DNA from: a virus
Length of the DNA: 64,000 bases
Direction: 5' to 3' (one strand)
Virus record (IMG/VR): IMGVR_UViG_3300030061_003170
Part shown: positions 38,500 through 64,000 of the stretch, piece by piece
Position numbering within the stretch: position 1 is the first letter of the stretch
Layout of the letters: every line of letters begins with the position of its first letter
Translations under genes and position numbers: made by a program
The notes under the pieces: model-generated
Databases searched by the model: none
What the model was told of the DNA's origin: nothing
What the model saw: only the letters and a program-made list of their open reading frames with translations

Positions 38500-38528
38500 A
38501 ATATAACACCATCAAGGAGAGTTGTCAA
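38500..38528 (-). promoter_or_regulatory. sigma70-type promoter TTGACA-N17-TATATT heading the glycan operon
   Basis: Read directly, extended TG and upstream A-tracts. Confidence 0.75.
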
Positions 38529-49136: not shown

Positions 49137-49460
49137 TTAATTAAAATAACTTTCAGTCTTATGCTTCTTTAAAAACTTATATAAATCACTTCTATCTATT
49201 CCTAATAATCTAGCCATATCTTTTTTAGTTTCACATGCAGTATAAGAATATTTTAATAAAGCATCTCTACATATCTCAGGCATTGCTTTCCATAAAGGAA
49301 AATTATATAACTTACCTCCAAGTAATCTAGATGATTGTTCTAACTTAATTGCTATCAGTTCTTCTAAAGAAATAGAGGAGAGAACATTAAGAAAGTTTTC
49401 ATTCAATCTTTGTTCCCTCCTCAGTTTATTAATAATGGAGTGGTTCTTTTTATTTGACAT
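49137..49460 (-). CDS. Fis-like helix-turn-helix protein
   Basis: KKDMARLLGIDRSDLYKFLKKH. Confidence 0.65.
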   Translation of the reverse strand: MSNKKNHSIINKLRREQRLNENFLNVLSSISLEELIAIKLEQSSRLLGGKLYNFPLWKAMPEICRDALLKYSYTACETKKDMARLLGIDRSDLYKFLKKHKTESYFN

Positions 49461-49480
49461 CAGTACCTCAACGTGTTACA

Positions 49481-50350
49481 TTAAATTGAAGTCTTTGCTT
49501 GTTCGTATTCTGGGGTAGTTGGTTCTGATAGTTCAGTTGCCAGTTCTCCTTCGAACTTATCAAAATACAACTTCATGTTTGTGATGAGGTAATCAACAAA
49601 AATCTTTTTGTCTTGAGGATCTGTTAATAAATCATAAGCATCAAGTATGTACTGACTAACTTTCTTGTGAGTAGTATAAGCCATGTTTTTACCAGTTTCA
49701 TCCATTTCTTCCAAACCAGAGCCAAAATCATCTTTTTCTTGTTCGGCAGGAGATTTTTCTTTCTCCCCTTCAATGTCCAAATCTTTTGTAGGATCAGGAT
49801 CAACATCAATGTCGATATCCTCTTCCAATTCGATGTCGTCTAAGTTAAGATCATCAATGTCAGCCAACATTTCATCTGATGGACTGGTTGCTTCTTCGCT
49901 ACCACCAGCAAGACCTGTAGGTTCGGCCATTAATGCACCAGAGTCTTGTAGGTACATGTCATTGACAAGTGCCGGCATGAGTGATTGTTTAACAGCATGG
50001 AGCATGTGTGCCCTGAACGAGTCACGTTGTGCTTTTGATGTCGTGAGGCGTTTGTAATCTGTGCGAAGAGTGGTAATCATTTTTTTCAATACATCTTCGA
50101 GAACATTAATACCGGTAGATCGATGAGGATGCATATCAGAGAGGTCACCTTCCTTGAGAAGTGTTTGACGAATAATTTTTCTTAAACGTTCTTCTTGGAC
50201 TAGTATTTCATCTTTTTGAGCCATTCTTCTAGAGATTTTTTCTCTAATAATTTTTCTTAATCGCTGCTCTTGGATAATTTCATCTCTCATTGATTCTTCC
50301 TTTAGTGTATTAAACAATTGCTTAAATGAAGTAACTTCAACTATGCTCAT
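49481..50350 (-). CDS. Acidic protein with duplicated RLRKIIR motif
   Basis: EQRLRKIIREKI and EERLRKIIRQTLLKE. Confidence 0.6.
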   Translation of the reverse strand: MSIVEVTSFKQLFNTLKEESMRDEIIQEQRLRKIIREKISRRMAQKDEILVQEERLRKIIRQTLLKEGDLSDMHPHRSTGINVLEDVLKKMITTLRTDYKRLTTSKAQRDSFRAHMLHAVKQSLMPALVNDMYLQDSGALMAEPTGLAGGSEEATSPSDEMLADIDDLNLDDIELEEDIDIDVDPDPTKDLDIEGEKEKSPAEQEKDDFGSGLEEMDETGKNMAYTTHKKVSQYILDAYDLLTDPQDKKIFVDYLITNMKLYFDKFEGELATELSEPTTPEYEQAKTSI

Positions 50351-53718: not shown

Positions 53719-53747
53719 AATATAACACATTTGTGTTAAGTTGTCAA
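53719..53747 (-). promoter_or_regulatory. sigma70-type promoter TTGACA-N17-TATATT
   Basis: Read directly in intergenic gap. Confidence 0.75.
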
Positions 53748-58459: not shown

Positions 58460-58507
58460 TTAAATCTCCAAAATTTTTTCCCGGAATTTTTCGGGGTTCA
58501 ACATTTA

Positions 58508-58514
58508 TAAGTAG
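58508..58514 (-). promoter_or_regulatory. Candidate late promoter variant CTACTTA
   Basis: Upstream of the three-gene MKFT block. Confidence 0.4.
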
Positions 58515-58649
58515 TGGCTTTAAACACAAAAAAACGGCTCTTAACCCAAATGAGTTAAAAACCGAAATCTGGCAAAATTTCTTAGCGATGTTGAATGTAC
58601 CTCCGCTGCGCTACGGCCCGCGACCCTATTGTAAGTACTTATTTCGGAC

Positions 58650-58730
58650 GGCCCTGGGTGGCAGGGGGGAGGGGGGAGGACCCCCCACCGTCGAAACGTG
58701 TTTCGGTCTGTTTCGGTGTTCGTTGTTTCG
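58650..58730. repeat. G/C tracts and short GTTTCG repeats
   Basis: G6-A-G6-AGGA-C6; GTTTCG at 58700, 58710, 58725, GTTCG at 58718, inverted CGAAAC at 58692. Confidence 0.55.
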
Positions 58731-59375
58731 TTATGCTTCGGGCTGCATCTCGGTGAACTGCTCACCCAACTCGGCAAGCATCCACTCGGGAACGTCGGCA
58801 TCCTCGGCATCGTCGTACCCCCCGTCTACGGTAGCGGTGCGCTGGGCTTCGTCGGCAATCTCTTGCAACTTGCGAGCCTTGACTTCTGCGATAGGCTCAG
58901 GCTTGACACAGCCACGCCCAGTGAACTCTGCCTCAAAGGTATCGTAGCGGTCGTCACCAACGAGGATCACGCTGTCGATAGAACGGTCAAGCAGCCACAA
59001 CTCCTTTTCTGACTTGGAGCCGAAAGAGATACAGTCAGCAATCTGGCGTAGTGTCTCAGTGACGAAACCACCAAGGCCAAACTTAGCGACACGCTCAACG
59101 TCGAAACGCAAGGTATCGATTTGCTCACACTGAAGCAGGGTAATACCGGCACCTCCCATAACGCCATTGAAAAGAACGTAGCAGTCACCGTGGAACATAG
59201 AGTAAGCAGCATTGCCATTATCGCGCACGCTCTGAGCAGGGTAACGTCGGTGTTCAAGAACCTCGTCAATGGTATTGGTGATAAGGGTACGTGCTTCCAC
59301 ACGGTCCTCGATGCTGATAGCAGCACGTCGGTTAGCAAGTTCGTTAGCGATGAAAGTTTCTACTGAGTTAGGCAT
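58731..59375 (-). CDS. 214-aa hypothetical early protein
   Basis: AAGGAG RBS, own array promoter. Confidence 0.75.
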   Translation of the reverse strand: MPNSVETFIANELANRRAAISIEDRVEARTLITNTIDEVLEHRRYPAQSVRDNGNAAYSMFHGDCYVLFNGVMGGAGITLLQCEQIDTLRFDVERVAKFGLGGFVTETLRQIADCISFGSKSEKELWLLDRSIDSVILVGDDRYDTFEAEFTGRGCVKPEPIAEVKARKLQEIADEAQRTATVDGGYDDAEDADVPEWMLAELGEQFTEMQPEA

Positions 59376-59463
59376 GGATTTCTCCTTGAGTGTTGTTGTT
59401 GTTTTCTATACTAATAATGTAACAGGTTCTAAAATGGTTGTCAAGTGAAAAGATAAACTTTTT

Positions 59464-59556
59464 TCAATCTTTTTCGATGGTCATCATAATGCTATCGTAA
59501 GCGTACCAAAAGCCAAGGGCACAAAACACCATAATGAAACAATCTACTGCAGCCAT
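59464..59556 (-). CDS. 30-aa hydrophobic microprotein
   Basis: AAGGAGG RBS, own promoter; MAAVDCFIMVFCALGFWYAYDSIMMTIEKD. Confidence 0.6.
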   Translation of the reverse strand: MAAVDCFIMVFCALGFWYAYDSIMMTIEKD

Positions 59557-59867
59557 TTGAACCTCCTTTGTTGTTCATACTAGTAATGTAACAAACCCGA
59601 TAATCCTTGTCAAGTGTTTTTTGTTACTTTTCTCACTTTTTTTGTCCTCCACGATAATCCACGTTCTAACTGTATTCTCACAATCGCGCTATCATACCCT
59701 CCCCTAAGAGACGGAAGAAAATAGTAGGTGCTGGGAACCATAGGCCTTGACCACAGGGGCAAAAGCACGGGGAGTCATTAGGGGCCTTGCACGATCCCCA
59801 ACACCGCTCCGTTGCATCCGCACGGAACCACACGGTTCATTAGATAGGAGAATAATGAAAAAAAATG

Positions 59868-59896
59868 TTGACAAAATCTGCCGATAATGTTAGCCT
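59868..59896 (+). promoter_or_regulatory. Plus-strand sigma70-like promoter TTGACA-N17-TAGCCT followed by CTATTTA (59900-59906)
   Basis: A-tract, perfect -35, TG-extended imperfect -10. Confidence 0.45.
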
Positions 59897-59904
59897 GAAC
59901 TATT

Positions 59905-60095
59905 TACTTATGTAATAAGCGATTGGCATCATTCTTGCGCCTGTTACACAGGCCATCGGGCGGTACTCACACAATACACACAGTCCCCCACTGCATCCAC
60001 CGCTCCCTCTCAGACCCACAAAGCCTACACGGGTTCACACACGGGTCTTTTTTGTTCTCTCCTGTCAGCATTTGCTCTTGACAGGGTTTTTTTTT
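59905..60095 (+). ncRNA. Candidate small RNA
   Basis: ORF-free, upstream promoter motifs, ends in hairpin plus T-run. Confidence 0.3.
60061..60095 (+). terminator. Intrinsic terminator-like hairpin
   Basis: CCTGTCA-N11-TGACAGG then G and nine T. Confidence 0.55.
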
Positions 60096-60146
60096 CTTTG
60101 CTTGTCCGTCACACAGGCGGTTGCAGGCGGGTGGGGTATCCGGGTA

Positions 60147-60362
60147 TCAGTCCGGTAGGCCATACTCCGTTGCGGGGTCGTTTGGTCTGATGAAATACAG
60201 CATAGAGTAAGGTAGGTCAATCTGTTCTCCTGAGGTTACTACGTTTAGGGTCACCATACCCGCCTGTTCATCTACTCTAACTATCCTACCAGCGATTATC
60301 GTTCCTGTAGTGATAATGTGCTCTAACTTGAGTATGGCTTGTTGTCCATAAAATATTTTTAT
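60147..60362 (-). CDS. 71-aa ORF with ATA start or mutated start codon
   Basis: GGAGG-ACAC-ATA; IKIFYGQQAILKLEHIITTGTIIAGRIVRVDEQAG... Confidence 0.4.
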   Translation of the reverse strand: MKIFYGQQAILKLEHIITTGTIIAGRIVRVDEQAGMVTLNVVTSGEQIDLPYSMLYFIRPNDPATEYGLPD

Positions 60363-60448
60363 GTGTCCTCCAATGTTTCAGTCGTTGATGGTTCTAATGT
60401 CATATGCCAGCAGGGCAATGCAAGCGGTCAGGCATAGGGCGATGGTCA

Positions 60449-60637
60449 TCACAGCACCCTAAGGATTTGGTAGTCGTATCCCCAGACACCGAAGTGATCC
60501 GATGGGGCATCCACCAAGTTACCAGTGAACCCAGCGCAACCGTTCTTTATGTCAACTTCTTTGTTATCGACAAGCACTCGTCTAACGCTTCCGTCAAATG
60601 TGGTGTACTCGATTATGTCTCCGACTTGATAGTTCAT
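60449..60637 (-). CDS. 62-aa hypothetical early protein
   Basis: TAATG-coupled, AAGGAG RBS; YQVGDIIEY. Confidence 0.7.
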   Translation of the reverse strand: MNYQVGDIIEYTTFDGSVRRVLVDNKEVDIKNGCAGFTGNLVDAPSDHFGVWGYDYQILRVL

Positions 60638-60867
60638 TATTGCTCCTTGGTTGGAAGTAGGTGGAATGAGATTTGAGTGTAGATGTGATAGAACAACTCA
60701 GCAAACTCGGTGTAATCGTCATAGTCCCAGTCGGTGGTGTCCATGTGTGAAACATTGGCATAATGACCGAGATACTCAACGGCTGCTGCCTTGGCTTCCT
60801 CTTCGCTTGACCATACTGTCACGTCGTTGTTGTCCATTGAACTGATAAGCAAAACTACTGCGTTCAT
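60637..60867 (-). CDS. 76-aa hypothetical early protein
   Basis: Start MNAVVLL after AAGGAG, downstream of array promoter. Confidence 0.7.
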   Translation of the reverse strand: MNAVVLLISSMDNNDVTVWSSEEEAKAAAVEYLGHYANVSHMDTTDWDYDDYTEFAELFYHIYTQISFHLLPTKEQ

Positions 60868-60942
60868 TTGTCTCTCCTTGTTTAGGTTACACTGTAATGT
60901 AACAAGGTTTGTTTTAGTTGTCAAGTGAAAAGGCAAAGTTTT

Positions 60943-61209
60943 TTAGAAACTAAATGAGTGTCTCGTGGTCACCGCCATTACAGCAGTCGGGTCTTGACTT
61001 CTCTTTGCATCCTGAGAGAGTTTCTTATGTGTTACCCACTTCTCTTTGGCCTCAGTTGTCTCGTAGGACACAAGGAACCTACCATAGAGCCAATCCATTT
61101 GCTCCGCGTGGGTTTGGTCATCCTTGAGCAAGAGTTGTGTCTCCATCACCACACCGTCGATAAAGGTCAAGGTCACGTCGTGCAGTGTCATTCCGTCATA
61201 GTGAAGCAT
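60943..61209 (-). CDS. 88-aa hypothetical early protein
   Basis: Start MLHYDGM downstream of array promoter. Confidence 0.7.
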   Translation of the reverse strand: MLHYDGMTLHDVTLTFIDGVVMETQLLLKDDQTHAEQMDWLYGRFLVSYETTEAKEKWVTHKKLSQDAKRSQDPTAVMAVTTRHSFSF

Positions 61210-61284
61210 TGTGTCTCTCTTTGTTTGGGTTACACTGTAATGTAACACGGTGGTTTTGAACTGTCAAGGAAAAAGGTAAAAATA

Positions 61285-61465
61285 ATCGTAGTGAGATTTT
61301 GAAATGGGCAGGCTCTCACTCGGCATCACATACGCCCTTAGTTGGGGATTTTCATTTGTCCTCGGTGTTGGGGTTGTCTCGTTGTGGGGTTACAGGTTTG
61401 TCGGTTACAGTCAACTATTCCGACCTCAGTTGTTACTCGCTTGCAATGTGAACCTCCTCGGCTAT
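61285..61465 (-). ncRNA. Candidate structured RNA occupying one promoter cassette
   Basis: Own array promoter; only 5-6 codon ORFs after RBS-like sites; three hairpins. Confidence 0.45.
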
Positions 61466-61519
61466 GTTAGTAATGTATCACGTTCATTTTAGTTTGTCAA
61501 GGAAAAAGATAAACTTTTT

Positions 61520-61726
61520 TCAACCCCAGACAGGTGCGTTATGCTTCACGTCGTGGATTGCGACAATGAGATCCTGCTCTTCAACTTTCCAAGTATCACA
61601 GATAATGTTGATTAGGTCTTGAGCACCATCGGCCCATGTTTCGTTGGATTGGTTTGCTAGGAATGATTGAGCACCATTGGTCAATCGCTCTCGGTAAGTG
61701 AAAAGATTTTCAATCAGTACGGTCAT
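61520..61726 (-). CDS. 68-aa hypothetical early protein
   Basis: AAGGAG RBS, own promoter. Confidence 0.75.
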   Translation of the reverse strand: MTVLIENLFTYRERLTNGAQSFLANQSNETWADGAQDLINIICDTWKVEEQDLIVAIHDVKHNAPVWG

Positions 61727-61801
61727 TGTCTCTCCTTTGTTGGTTACACTAGTAATGTATCACGTTCAGATTATTTGTCAAGGAAAAAGGCAAACTTTTT
61801 T

Positions 61802-62023
61802 TCACTTTTCTCTCTCGGCAAGTTGTGCCCTTGCGAGTTTCACGAACAGGGGAGCATATTCTTTCTGCTCTACGAAAAGGTCAACCGCATCAATGTGATC
61901 CTGAATGTCGAAAGCATCGACCGTAATCCTGTCTGACAGCCAGTTAGCATCGCGTTGAAGTTGGATGGCAAAGTCAGGGTTCGCTCGGCAAAGTGCAACG
62001 AGCATATCGTAGAATGAAAGCAT
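61802..62023 (-). CDS. 73-aa hypothetical early protein
   Basis: GGAG RBS, own promoter. Confidence 0.75.
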   Translation of the reverse strand: MLSFYDMLVALCRANPDFAIQLQRDANWLSDRITVDAFDIQDHIDAVDLFVEQKEYAPLFVKLARAQLAEREK

Positions 62024-62106
62024 TGTGTCTCCGTTGTTGTGTTGTTCTCTCTAATAATGTAACAAGGTCATCCAAACTTGTCAAGCGAAAAGGCAAACTT
62101 TTTTGA

Positions 62107-62205
62107 TTATTTTTTGTTTGGCTTGATGCAGTGCTGGTAGACGGTATCGGCAATGATGAAACCGGGCAGGATCACGAGCAGCAAAAAGGAAATAGCGAAA
62201 AGCAT
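62107..62205 (-). CDS. 32-aa membrane microprotein
   Basis: AGGAG RBS; MLFAISFLLLVILPGFIIADTVYQHCIKPNKK. Confidence 0.6.
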   Translation of the reverse strand: MLFAISFLLLVILPGFIIADTVYQHCIKPNKK

Positions 62206-62224
62206 GGTTGCTCCTGTTTGGGGT

Positions 62225-62428
62225 TTAGAGATTGTCCATCGCTTGGATATGTCGATACTTGATGGCACGAACACGATACCTGTGACTATACCCTTGGTAG
62301 GTCTGACCAACTTTCCGACGGTCATGGAGATTAGAGACGTATCGGTCCTCGACTACCGCTCCCTTGAGTGCCCCAGACAAGATTTCTTTTTCGATAATGA
62401 CAGTTTGCATTTTAGGTCTAAGTTGCAT
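62225..62428 (-). CDS. 67-aa hypothetical early protein
   Basis: GGAGG RBS, start MQLRPK. Confidence 0.7.
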   Translation of the reverse strand: MQLRPKMQTVIIEKEILSGALKGAVVEDRYVSNLHDRRKVGQTYQGYSHRYRVRAIKYRHIQAMDNL

Positions 62429-62479
62429 TGTTCCTCCGTTGTTGGTTATGTTCATAATGTAACAGGTTCAAAAGATTTG

Positions 62480-62620
62480 TCAAGGAGAAAGTTCAAAAAA
62501 GTTTCCAAACCATTCGCCAAGTTCCATTCCTAGGACGATGCAACCAAAAGCACTTCCAATCATAATCAGCCAAAAAACAAGTGCTTTCTCGTAACTGTCA
62601 ATGTATCTGAAAAGGTTCAT
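62480..62620 (-). CDS. 46-aa membrane microprotein
   Basis: AAGGAG RBS; MNLFRYIDSYEKALVFWLIMIGSAFGCIVLGMELGEWFGNFFELSP; stop lies in next -35 box. Confidence 0.6.
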   Translation of the reverse strand: MNLFRYIDSYEKALVFWLIMIGSAFGCIVLGMELGEWFGNFFELSP

Positions 62621-62694
62621 TATGTCTCCTTGTTTGGGTTACACTGTAATGTAACAAGGTAGGAATAATCTGTCAAGGAAAAAGGCAAACTTTT

Positions 62695-63054
62695 TTAGTT
62701 TTTTTCTACGCTTCCCGACAGACCGCCATCAATGACCCTTAGCCCCGGTTTAGGTTCCTCCACCGGTGGGGATAACTCTTCAATAAGATTATCAACAATG
62801 TCGCGAACGCGGGAGGTTACCAAGTCATCCAAGGCTTTGAGTGTCTCCTCGAAAATCTCAAGGTCTTGCTCGACTAACTTCGTTTGCAACTGGCCCTCTC
62901 GCTCTCTCCGGCTTTCATAGATTTCTTCGCATCCATCGAAGATTTCATCATTATGTTGTGCTCGTAGGGTGCTGATGTATTTCCAAGTCAGCAGAAACAA
63001 TCCATAGTCGCTGATTGCAGCGAGATTGTCGGCTAGGTCTCTGGGGTTACGCAT
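62695..63054 (-). CDS. 119-aa helical early protein ending PGLRVIDGG
   Basis: GGAG RBS, start MRNPRD. Confidence 0.7.
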   Translation of the reverse strand: MRNPRDLADNLAAISDYGLFLLTWKYISTLRAQHNDEIFDGCEEIYESRREREGQLQTKLVEQDLEIFEETLKALDDLVTSRVRDIVDNLIEELSPPVEEPKPGLRVIDGGLSGSVEKN

Positions 63055-63199
63055 AACTACTCTCCGAGATGTAACCGTCAAACCAGTCAAGGCCTGAAGT
63101 GCTGGGGTCGTTACAGTGTTCTTGTGCTTCCTCTAAGGTCACTCCTGCTTTGATAACTTGACTAGGGCCGTCTCTGTGGTAGCGGATGATAAGATACAT
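63047..63199 (-). CDS. 50-aa hypothetical early protein
   Basis: AGGAG RBS; MYLIIRYHRDGPSQVIKAGVTLEEAQEHCNDPSTSGLDWFDGY... Confidence 0.65.
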   Translation of the reverse strand: MYLIIRYHRDGPSQVIKAGVTLEEAQEHCNDPSTSGLDWFDGYISESSYA

Positions 63200-63274
63200 G
63201 GATGCTCCTGTGTGGGGGTGTGGTAGTAATGTAACAGGTTGATTTTAGTTTGTCAAGGAAAATGGTAAACTTTT

Positions 63275-63781
63275 TTAGATTGTGCTCCTACTGTAAAACT
63301 TTTCTCTTTGTTCTTCCTCTCGTTTCTTTCGAGCAGTATGAACGGTTTTTGGTGCCCTAAGGGGTAGTTTTTTTATCTCTCTGAGAGGGACACAAAAGTG
63401 TCTAGCGCATCTATCTACCAACTTATGATAAGAGCCTGATTTTTTCGAGTTAGACCAGTCAAAAAGTCTCTTGGTTTCAATACCGATTTTTTTTCCAACC
63501 CGAATAACACCGTCGCTTTCCCTGATAAAATCGTATTCATGGCCAACTTGATAAAGGTCGTCAGCGTTTGATTGACATTTCTTGATGATCTCACGTCTTA
63601 GCATTTCACCGCAATCCTCTCTCGTTACTGCCGTATCATTGCATTTCAAAAACATCATTAGAAAATCTTCACGCGAAAATGCAGGAGTGCCCACCGTTGT
63701 TATGTTGCCTGTTGAGAATGAAGTTGCTATTTTGTCGGGTGCGCCAATCTGCGAGGACCAAGTGATAAAAAGTTTTCCCAT
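63275..63781 (-). CDS. 168-aa basic hypothetical early protein
   Basis: GGAG RBS, own promoter. Confidence 0.75.
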   Translation of the reverse strand: MGKLFITWSSQIGAPDKIATSFSTGNITTVGTPAFSREDFLMMFLKCNDTAVTREDCGEMLRREIIKKCQSNADDLYQVGHEYDFIRESDGVIRVGKKIGIETKRLFDWSNSKKSGSYHKLVDRCARHFCVPLREIKKLPLRAPKTVHTARKKREEEQREKFYSRSTI

Positions 63782-63857
63782 TGTTTCTCCGTTATGTGGG
63801 TATGGTAGTAATGTAACAGGTTGATTTTAGTTTGTCAAGGAAAATGGTAAACTTTTT

Positions 63858-64000
63858 TTATGTTTCGATTACTTCCTCGAACAATGCGGTGACAGCAGCA
63901 AATAACTCGTCCGTGCTTTCGTAGTCATTATCTTTCCATCCGTCATAGTGATGTTCGCCCATATATTTCACGCAATCCACAACTTTAGGGCCGAATAGAG
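63858..64000 (-). CDS. 3' end of a hypothetical protein entering from the right edge
   Basis: ...KYMGEHHYDGWKDNDYESTDELFAAVTALFEEVIET stop, fused to cassette A-tract. Confidence 0.55.
   Translation of the reverse strand, partial: LFGPKVVDCVKYMGEHHYDGWKDNDYESTDELFAAVTALFEEVIET

Follow-up and report, generated by a model that had tools for sequence, protein, structure and literature searches.

The closest described counterparts of the locus presented here are the promoter-early stem-loop (PeSL) cassettes, which were described in the T4-type phages RB49 and phi1 (Arbiol et al. 2010, PMC2839356) and were later extended to PST/T4 and nt-1/KVP40 (Comeau et al. 2014, PMC4122927). A PeSL combines a strong sigma-70-like promoter, an AT-rich upstream part that includes the stop codon of the upstream gene, a terminating stem-loop, and a Shine-Dalgarno (SD) sequence and start codon at its end (PMC2839356). 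PeSLs cluster in hyperplastic regions, where they precede ORFans, and the insertions and deletions found there have been explained by recombination and mini-circles (PMC2839356). The present work deals with an array of eleven promoter-like repeats carried by the minus strand of a stretch of 64,000 nucleotides (nt), called the window below, from IMG/VR virus record IMGVR_UViG_3300030061_003170. These repeats, hereafter units P11 (the most upstream) to P1, very probably act both as early promoters and as recombination seams for gene cassettes.

The array shares several traits with PeSLs: a repeated sigma-70-like early promoter whose AT-rich upstream part holds a stop codon and whose 3' end carries an SD sequence and a start codon; a clustered location in a hyperplastic region ahead of ORFans; and insertions, deletions or replacements between related phages that are bounded by the units (here at least nine events, four of them with duplicate units). 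The fusion of a stop codon with an A-tract is already part of the PeSL description and is not new. However, the array displays no stem-loop or terminator component, and its cassettes would therefore not be transcriptionally insulated. It also differs from PeSLs in its -10 box, which is TACATT, and in its phage, an uncultured marine virus with only distant relatives among sequenced phages. Although it works like PeSLs, the array falls outside this class by the PeSL definition, the stem-loop/terminator not having been found; the mechanism proposed below would otherwise be the one already put forward for T4-type phages.

Two other phage systems are similar in part. The host-takeover module of SPO1 reportedly comprises about two dozen small early genes with many strong host-type promoters and strong ribosome sites; it is said to lie within the terminal redundancy, with gene functions partly known, and repeat-mediated shuffling is said not to have been the point of its description. 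The present array resembles it as a block of small, predicted early genes under many host-type promoters and ribosome sites that appear strong. The comparison with T4 promoters is based on the T4 early promoter consensus, in which the -35 box is TTTACW-like, unlike the TTGACA of the window; furthermore, the copies described here form one dense, uninterrupted and co-oriented array. The T4 early promoters and the promoter-like elements of the T-even internal-protein loci (PMC2839356) nevertheless resemble the units, as they occur in many copies that are conserved beyond the hexamers, have upstream A-tracts and lie close to small non-essential genes in plastic loci.

Anatomy of the array

The strict pattern TTGACA-N16-18-TACATTA is found 12 times in the window, against 0.02 matches expected from shuffled sequences. 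Eleven of these 12 matches are located on the minus strand, where they are packed in 4.5 kb; the array spans 59416-63860 and all its units are co-oriented. The long open reading frames (ORFs) of the window all lie on this strand too, and each unit is co-directional with its genes. Read along the minus strand, a unit successively carries the stop codon of the upstream gene, an A-tract, TTGACA, a spacer, TGn-TACATT, an A/C-rich leader, GGAG and ATG. Its upstream block, AAAAAAGTTT(A/G)CC(A/T)TTTTCC, lies just before TTGACA, and the consensus of the unit is AAAAAAGTTTrCCwTTTTCC-TTGACA-A...A.C.TGT-TACATT-AC. The spacer is 17 nt long in nine units and 16 nt long in two, and an extended -10, with TG one base before the -10 box, is present in all eleven. 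The units and the hairpin that closes the array are listed below, the first coordinate of each hexamer being its start on the minus strand.

63782-63860, minus strand: unit P11; the TAA stop codon of gene X (63860-63858) is fused to the A-tract; -35 at 63838-63833, -10 at 63815-63810, then an A/C-rich leader and GGAG
63200-63277, minus strand: unit P10; -35 at 63256-63251, -10 at 63233-63228
62621-62697, minus strand: unit P9; -35 at 62676-62671, -10 at 62653-62648, with a 7-bp AU-rich hairpin over the -10
62429-62483, minus strand: unit P8; -35 at 62483-62478, 16-nt spacer, -10 at 62461-62456; no A-tract
62024-62104, minus strand: unit P7; -35 at 62084-62079, -10 at 62061-62056
61727-61803, minus strand: unit P6; -35 at 61781-61776, 16-nt spacer, -10 at 61759-61754
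61466-61521, minus strand: unit P5; -35 at 61500-61495, -10 at 61477-61472; drives no ORF
61210-61280, minus strand: unit P4; -35 at 61267-61262, -10 at 61244-61239; A-tract lost at a deletion junction, TTTACC
60868-60945, minus strand: unit P3; -35 at 60924-60919, -10 at 60901-60896
59557-59613, minus strand: unit P2; -35 at 59613-59608, -10 at 59590-59585; upstream part divergent
59376-59466, minus strand: unit P1; -35 at 59444-59439, -10 at 59421-59416; one or two extra cassettes are found here in some sister strains
58535-58564, minus strand: intrinsic terminator-like hairpin, 13 pairs followed by T7, directly after the gene encoding a protein of 214 amino acids (aa); closes the array

The conservation of the units extends past the hexamers. 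Indeed, their pairwise identity over 74 nt is 62% on average (range 38-88%), and P11 and P10 are identical over 56 nt (63858-63803 = 63276-63221). In eight of the eleven units, the stop codon of the upstream gene lies in or beside the A-tract (63858, 63275, 62695, 62107, 61802, 61520, 60943 and 59464). P8 has no A-tract because coding sequence overlies that position, the stop codon of a 46-aa ORF sitting within its -35. P4 and P2 are preceded by non-coding DNA, and P4 lacks an A-tract because the junction of a deletion (E6, see below) falls in its upstream block. The leader begins with AC and is rich in A and C (A 49%, C 29%, T 15% and G 7%, versus 30/22/25/23% for the region). GGAG or GAGG followed by ATG is present in 10 of the 11 units; P7 being left out of the measurement, this motif starts 12-30 nt downstream of the end of the -10. 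An initial annotation of this DNA had described eleven repeats of this anatomy, with conservation beyond the hexamers and stop codons at the repeat edges, and the pattern search and unit alignment bear out every particular.

The same annotation had seen no terminator between most units. In agreement with this, a terminator scan reveals no co-directional terminator inside the array and no minus-strand terminator-like site in 59400-64000; internal co-directional terminators are likewise absent from the array of L002, one of the sister strains presented below. The units were also folded, over a span that begins 25 nt before the -35 and ends 40 nt after the -10, and compared with dinucleotide shuffles. 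None displays a significant stem-loop (fold z from -1.0 to +1.6), the 7-bp AU-rich hairpin over the -10 being present only in P9, P4 and P3, and no recurrent inverted repeat tied to the units was found. The terminator that closes the array has a conserved counterpart at 8975-9004 of L002. This strain also carries, at 595-621, a GC-rich terminator-like hairpin (GATGACCCCGG..CCGGGGTCATT), in the upstream part of its array and just before a promoter unit at 653; insulation of some of the units outside the window is therefore possible.

From the near-consensus anatomy, orientation and position of the units, we infer that they are early promoters used by the host polymerase. Each repeat would be a strong early promoter read by a sigma-70-type RNA polymerase of the host, owing to phased A- and T-tracts where an UP element would lie, a -35 without mismatch, a spacer of 16/17 nt and an extended -10, TGnTACATT. 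The unstructured A/C-rich leader and the GGAG ribosome site would then drive the expression of one to three small genes. Since no terminator separates the units, transcripts should read through and sum unit by unit until the hairpin at 58564-58535, after the 214-aa gene.

Downstream of the 11 units lie 14 small ORFs of 23 to 214 aa. For the ten array ORFs open to strain comparison, the ratio of non-synonymous to synonymous polymorphism (pN/pS) is 0.06-0.39 across strains, which corresponds to purifying selection, and they are therefore real genes. The initial annotation had also raised an RNA-polymerase sink or a transcription-driven DNA entry device. In such a mainly physical role, the array would draw host RNA polymerase off host genes, or its transcription would pull DNA into the cell, as in T7. 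Eleven near-consensus promoters, co-oriented and devoid of intervening terminators, would suit such a role. However, the purifying selection acting on the ORFs indicates that gene expression matters, and a mainly physical role of the array is considered very unlikely.

Cassette exchange among sister strains

A search of metagenomes with the 214-aa protein yielded ten contigs, whose sources are marine metagenomes, Tara included. The array is spanned by two of them, L002 and L006, with amino-acid identities of 90% and 83%, and the set of strains compared comprises the window, these two long contigs and five usable short contigs. Cassette maps, protein matches and junction alignments reveal at least nine structural differences across this set.

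Direct copies of a single promoter variant stand on both sides of four cassettes, at places where other strains have one copy. The 168-aa cassette (E2), present in the window and in L002 but absent from L006, is flanked by P11 and P10, i.e. by the copies that are identical over 56 nt. The single unit found at this place in L006 has the left flank of P11 and the right flank of P10, and the crossover therefore took place somewhere within the shared stretch of about 58 nt. The P1 slot, i.e. the gap between the 30-aa and 214-aa genes (E8), can be compared in seven strains: the window, L002 and L003 have no extra cassette there, L004, L005 and L006 have one each, and L007 has two. The units on either side of every extra cassette have in common the spacer CATTTTAGAAC, which is specific to this slot. 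The same kind of bracketing by duplicate units is seen for a 102-aa cassette unique to L006 (E9).

Upstream of P11 (E1), the window and L006 carry gene X, which has no promoter of its own, and L002 carries a promoter unit and an unrelated 66-aa gene; homology starts exactly at the stop/A-tract, at 63859. The content of the P6 slot (E5) differs in each of these strains: the window has a 68-aa gene, L002 a 71-aa gene that is not related to it, and L006 a 42-aa ORF that has no promoter. The next promoter of L006 joins the P6 spacer to the P5 leader. Behind the P5 leader (E6), a 101-aa gene is present in L002, and the window and L006 lack 347 nt, with a junction (TTTACC/TTTGCC) inside the upstream block of P4. 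In L006, the 32-aa ORF is missing (E4), with a junction that starts at the 67-aa gene's stop codon and continues into the P7 A-tract. The same strain has an additional unit that separates the 76-aa gene from the 62-aa gene (E7); in the window, these two genes overlap as TAATG.

Three families of related genes are also found in different slots, depending on the strain. A 71/72-aa gene, 'FSYPH', is found in the P6 slot of L002 and in the P1 slot of L004-L007 (66% identity, E 2.7e-36); the 68-aa gene that fills the P6 slot of the window is related to a gene of the P1 slot of L007 (40% identity, E 4e-13); and the P5 slot of L002 holds a gene related to gene X (33% identity, E 9e-16). Furthermore, P11 and P10 of the window share two derived bases that differ from both L002 orthologues and from the single L006 copy; gene conversion between these neighbouring units would be the simplest explanation.

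An automatic chain analysis places 35 of 80 alignment-gap edges at 5 nt or less from a unit, against 17 expected and a maximum of 31 in 10,000 randomisations, in a count that takes in small divergent patches and comes from three pairwise comparisons that are not independent. The hand-checked junctions are stronger evidence. Globally, cassette content and order differ among strains and most breakpoints lie in the repeats or at their edges, in line with the gain, loss and shuffling of cassettes put forward in the initial annotation; gene order is therefore not fixed among relatives, nor are its breakpoints unrelated to the repeats.

Duplicate flanks, hybrid units and concerted changes show, at the level of sequence comparison, that the units have acted as homology patches in cassette recombination. 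Because they resemble one another, these units of about 60-85 nt would serve as such patches for the general recombination of the phage. Unequal crossovers, or the re-integration of excised circles, would then lead to the insertion, deletion, duplication or relocation of whole cassettes and would leave genes unbroken.

Alternatively, the units could be promoters only. Their likeness would then result from selection for promoter strength, and insertions and deletions would be found there since only whole-gene changes survive, the units playing no causal role in recombination. Some of the data fit this explanation. Most unit pairs share identical runs of 8-27 nt, which are short for efficient homologous recombination; three events, E4, E6 and E7, join no two repeats and involve microhomology or a single repeat edge; and orthologous units are usually each other's nearest neighbours. 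The first two points weigh against a dual role of the units, as do three others. The -10 is TACATT and not TATAAT; the long relatives number only two; and, as the units lie at gene boundaries, breakpoints would be enriched there even if nothing but selection for intact genes were at work, and this selection surely contributes to the position of the breakpoints too.

However, promoter function alone does not account for the four cassettes bracketed by direct copies, as these copies share spacer bases that have no known promoter role and as the corresponding empty sites consist of one hybrid copy. It accounts no better for the concerted changes of P11 and P10. Solitary promoters of the same type provide a further comparison. 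They are located elsewhere on the minus strand of the window (-35 starts at 38528, 53747 and 47099; TTGACA-N17-TGTTATATT or TGTTATAAT) and precede larger gene blocks; they keep the hexamers but not the AAAAAAGTTTrCC block that is specific to the array. The absence of this block from the solitary promoters fits an origin of the array units from a common ancestor, through duplication and recombination and not through convergence alone. These data make it unlikely that the units are promoters without any role in recombination.

In integrons, cassettes lack promoters of their own and are transcribed from a single shared promoter, and the recombinase IntI acts with attC hairpin sites. The array resembles them in that units of the size of a gene are acquired, lost and rearranged at a recurring boundary, and the term 'integron-like' used in the initial annotation holds as an analogy, which the PeSL authors have drawn as well. 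A genuine integron-like system, with cassette capture by a site-specific recombinase at a dedicated site overlapping the repeat, would also be consistent with gene-sized cassettes and with the fusion of the stop codon to the repeat edge. However, no unit carries an attC-like inverted repeat or a significant hairpin, cassettes have their own promoters (11 promoters for 14 ORFs) and the crossover zones are long identical stretches that have no fixed point. None of the 11 array ORFs searched (ten per library) and none of the neighbouring genes scanned matches a Pfam or PHROG family, recombinases included, the rest of the genome not being part of the search. In this literal sense, the term does not stand, and a dedicated site-specific system is extremely improbable.

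If the units are both promoters and seams, the array would indicate that repeated early promoters are seams for the exchange of accessory early genes of large phages in natural ocean populations as well as in laboratory pairs of coliphages. Cassette exchange would then not require the stem-loop/terminator half of the PeSL design.

Genes behind the units and source phage

The genes carried by the array of the window are the following.

63275-63781, minus strand: 168-aa ORFan; cassette present in the window and L002, not in L006; pN/pS 0.14
62695-63199, minus strand: overlapping 50-aa (63047-63199) and 119-aa (62695-63054) ORFs; pN/pS 0.11-0.27
62480-62620, minus strand: 46-aa hydrophobic ORF; its TGA stop codon lies within the -35 of P8; pN/pS 0.24
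62107-62428, minus strand: 67-aa ORF (62225-62428) and 32-aa hydrophobic ORF (62107-62205), the latter missing in L006
61802-62023, minus strand: 73-aa ORF, found in the window, L002 and L006; pN/pS 0.12-0.20
61520-61726, minus strand: 68-aa ORF of the variable P6 slot; 40% identical to a relative in the L007 P1 slot
60943-61209, minus strand: 88-aa ORF; pN/pS 0.09-0.16
60378-60867, minus strand: three coupled ORFs, of 76 aa (60637-60867), 62 aa (60449-60637) and 23 aa (hydrophobic; 60378-60449)
59464-59556, minus strand: 30-aa hydrophobic ORF; pN/pS 0.21-0.30
58731-59375, minus strand: 214-aa ORFan, last gene of the array; pN/pS 0.17

The 168-aa protein belongs only to its own cluster among 5.8 billion proteins. 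A helix-turn-helix lead from the Atlas has a score of 0.89, which is under the useful level. The single-sequence AlphaFold model of this protein is unusable (predicted local distance difference test, pLDDT, of 40). Atlas returned nothing for the 214-aa protein. Four array peptides (46, 32, 30 and 23 aa) are tiny and hydrophobic and resemble single membrane-spanning helices; the 23-aa ORF, whose start overlaps the preceding stop codon as TGATG, is shorter than the usual ORF cut-offs. Because all array ORFs are ORFans, the label of host-takeover genes is unproven and this function is a guess. The 14 ORFans nonetheless constitute a defined, strain-variable set of candidates for host-takeover or anti-defence functions.

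The window encodes a gp6-type baseplate wedge protein that matches phrog_219 and phrog_6. Its best match, with 30% identity, is found in Microcystis phage Mel-JY01, and similar matches are found in uncultured and Flavobacterium myoviruses. PhoH and a sugar-biosynthesis island are also encoded in the window. Among 50,697 phage records, no match was obtained with the array (megablast) or with the 214-aa protein (tblastn), and protein and DNA-pattern scans of IMG/VR did not reveal any relative, L001 being a single chance match. As part of the explanation favoured here, the source phage is in all likelihood a large uncultured marine myovirus that is distantly related to sequenced phages, and the array would be the distal part of its early hyperplastic region.

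Upstream of the part that matches the window, L006 carries five further units and a series of mini-genes. Six of the latter, each starting with MQVGDLV, are chained at 130-1258, upstream of its promoter array. The 62-aa ORF of the window (MNYQVGDII..) was considered as kin of these mini-genes and rejected, as it shares only an N-terminal QVGD motif and the resemblance is not significant.

Non-coding stretches and outlying promoters

Two non-coding stretches are located inside the array.

61281-61465, minus strand: predicted ORF-less transcript of P5, about 185 nt; this sequence serves in L002 as leader of the 101-aa gene
59620-60377, no strand assigned: conserved non-coding stretch; carries on the plus strand a promoter-like site (-35 at 59868-59873) and terminator hairpins that end at about 60095

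The P5 cassette was examined as a dedicated structured RNA, and this was rejected, given a fold z of 0.13 and the presence in L002 of the 101-aa gene behind the same leader. The ORF-less stretch would most simply be a long leader left after the deletion of this gene, which is located at 5907-6212 of L002 and is a paralogue of gene X, the gene that lies upstream of P11.

In the second stretch, a counter-oriented promoter-like site on the plus strand (AAAAAAAATG-TTGACA-N17-(TGT)TAGCCT; window 59860-60095) is 100% conserved in three strains. Downstream of it lie about 200 nt that end in two plus-strand terminator hairpins, the second of which is CCTGTCA..TGACAGG plus T9. The fold z is -2.2, and one hairpin is maintained in L006 by several compensating changes. 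This is a candidate small RNA that would run against the early genes. A search of Rfam with 58500-64000, which includes this candidate, gave no match at E<=1. A 51-aa ORF starting with TTG (60065-60220) was rejected as a gene, its pN/pS of 0.6-1.5 being that of non-coding DNA.

As no stem-loop insulates the units, transcription would add up from unit to unit, and the slot occupied by a cassette would set its dose; recombination between units might thus retune expression together with gene content. The ORF-less P5 transcript and the counter-oriented promoter with its two terminators (59868-60095) could then regulate read-through and not be mere debris. Taken jointly, these two ideas are tentative and somewhat doubtful.

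Besides the array, the solitary promoter at 53747 has an orthologue in L003, at 7041. The twelfth match to the strict pattern lies on the plus strand of the window at 49454-49483 (TTGACA-N17-TGTTACATTA), in the gap between two minus-strand genes, and this predicted promoter would fire antisense into a 289-aa gene located at 49481-50350.

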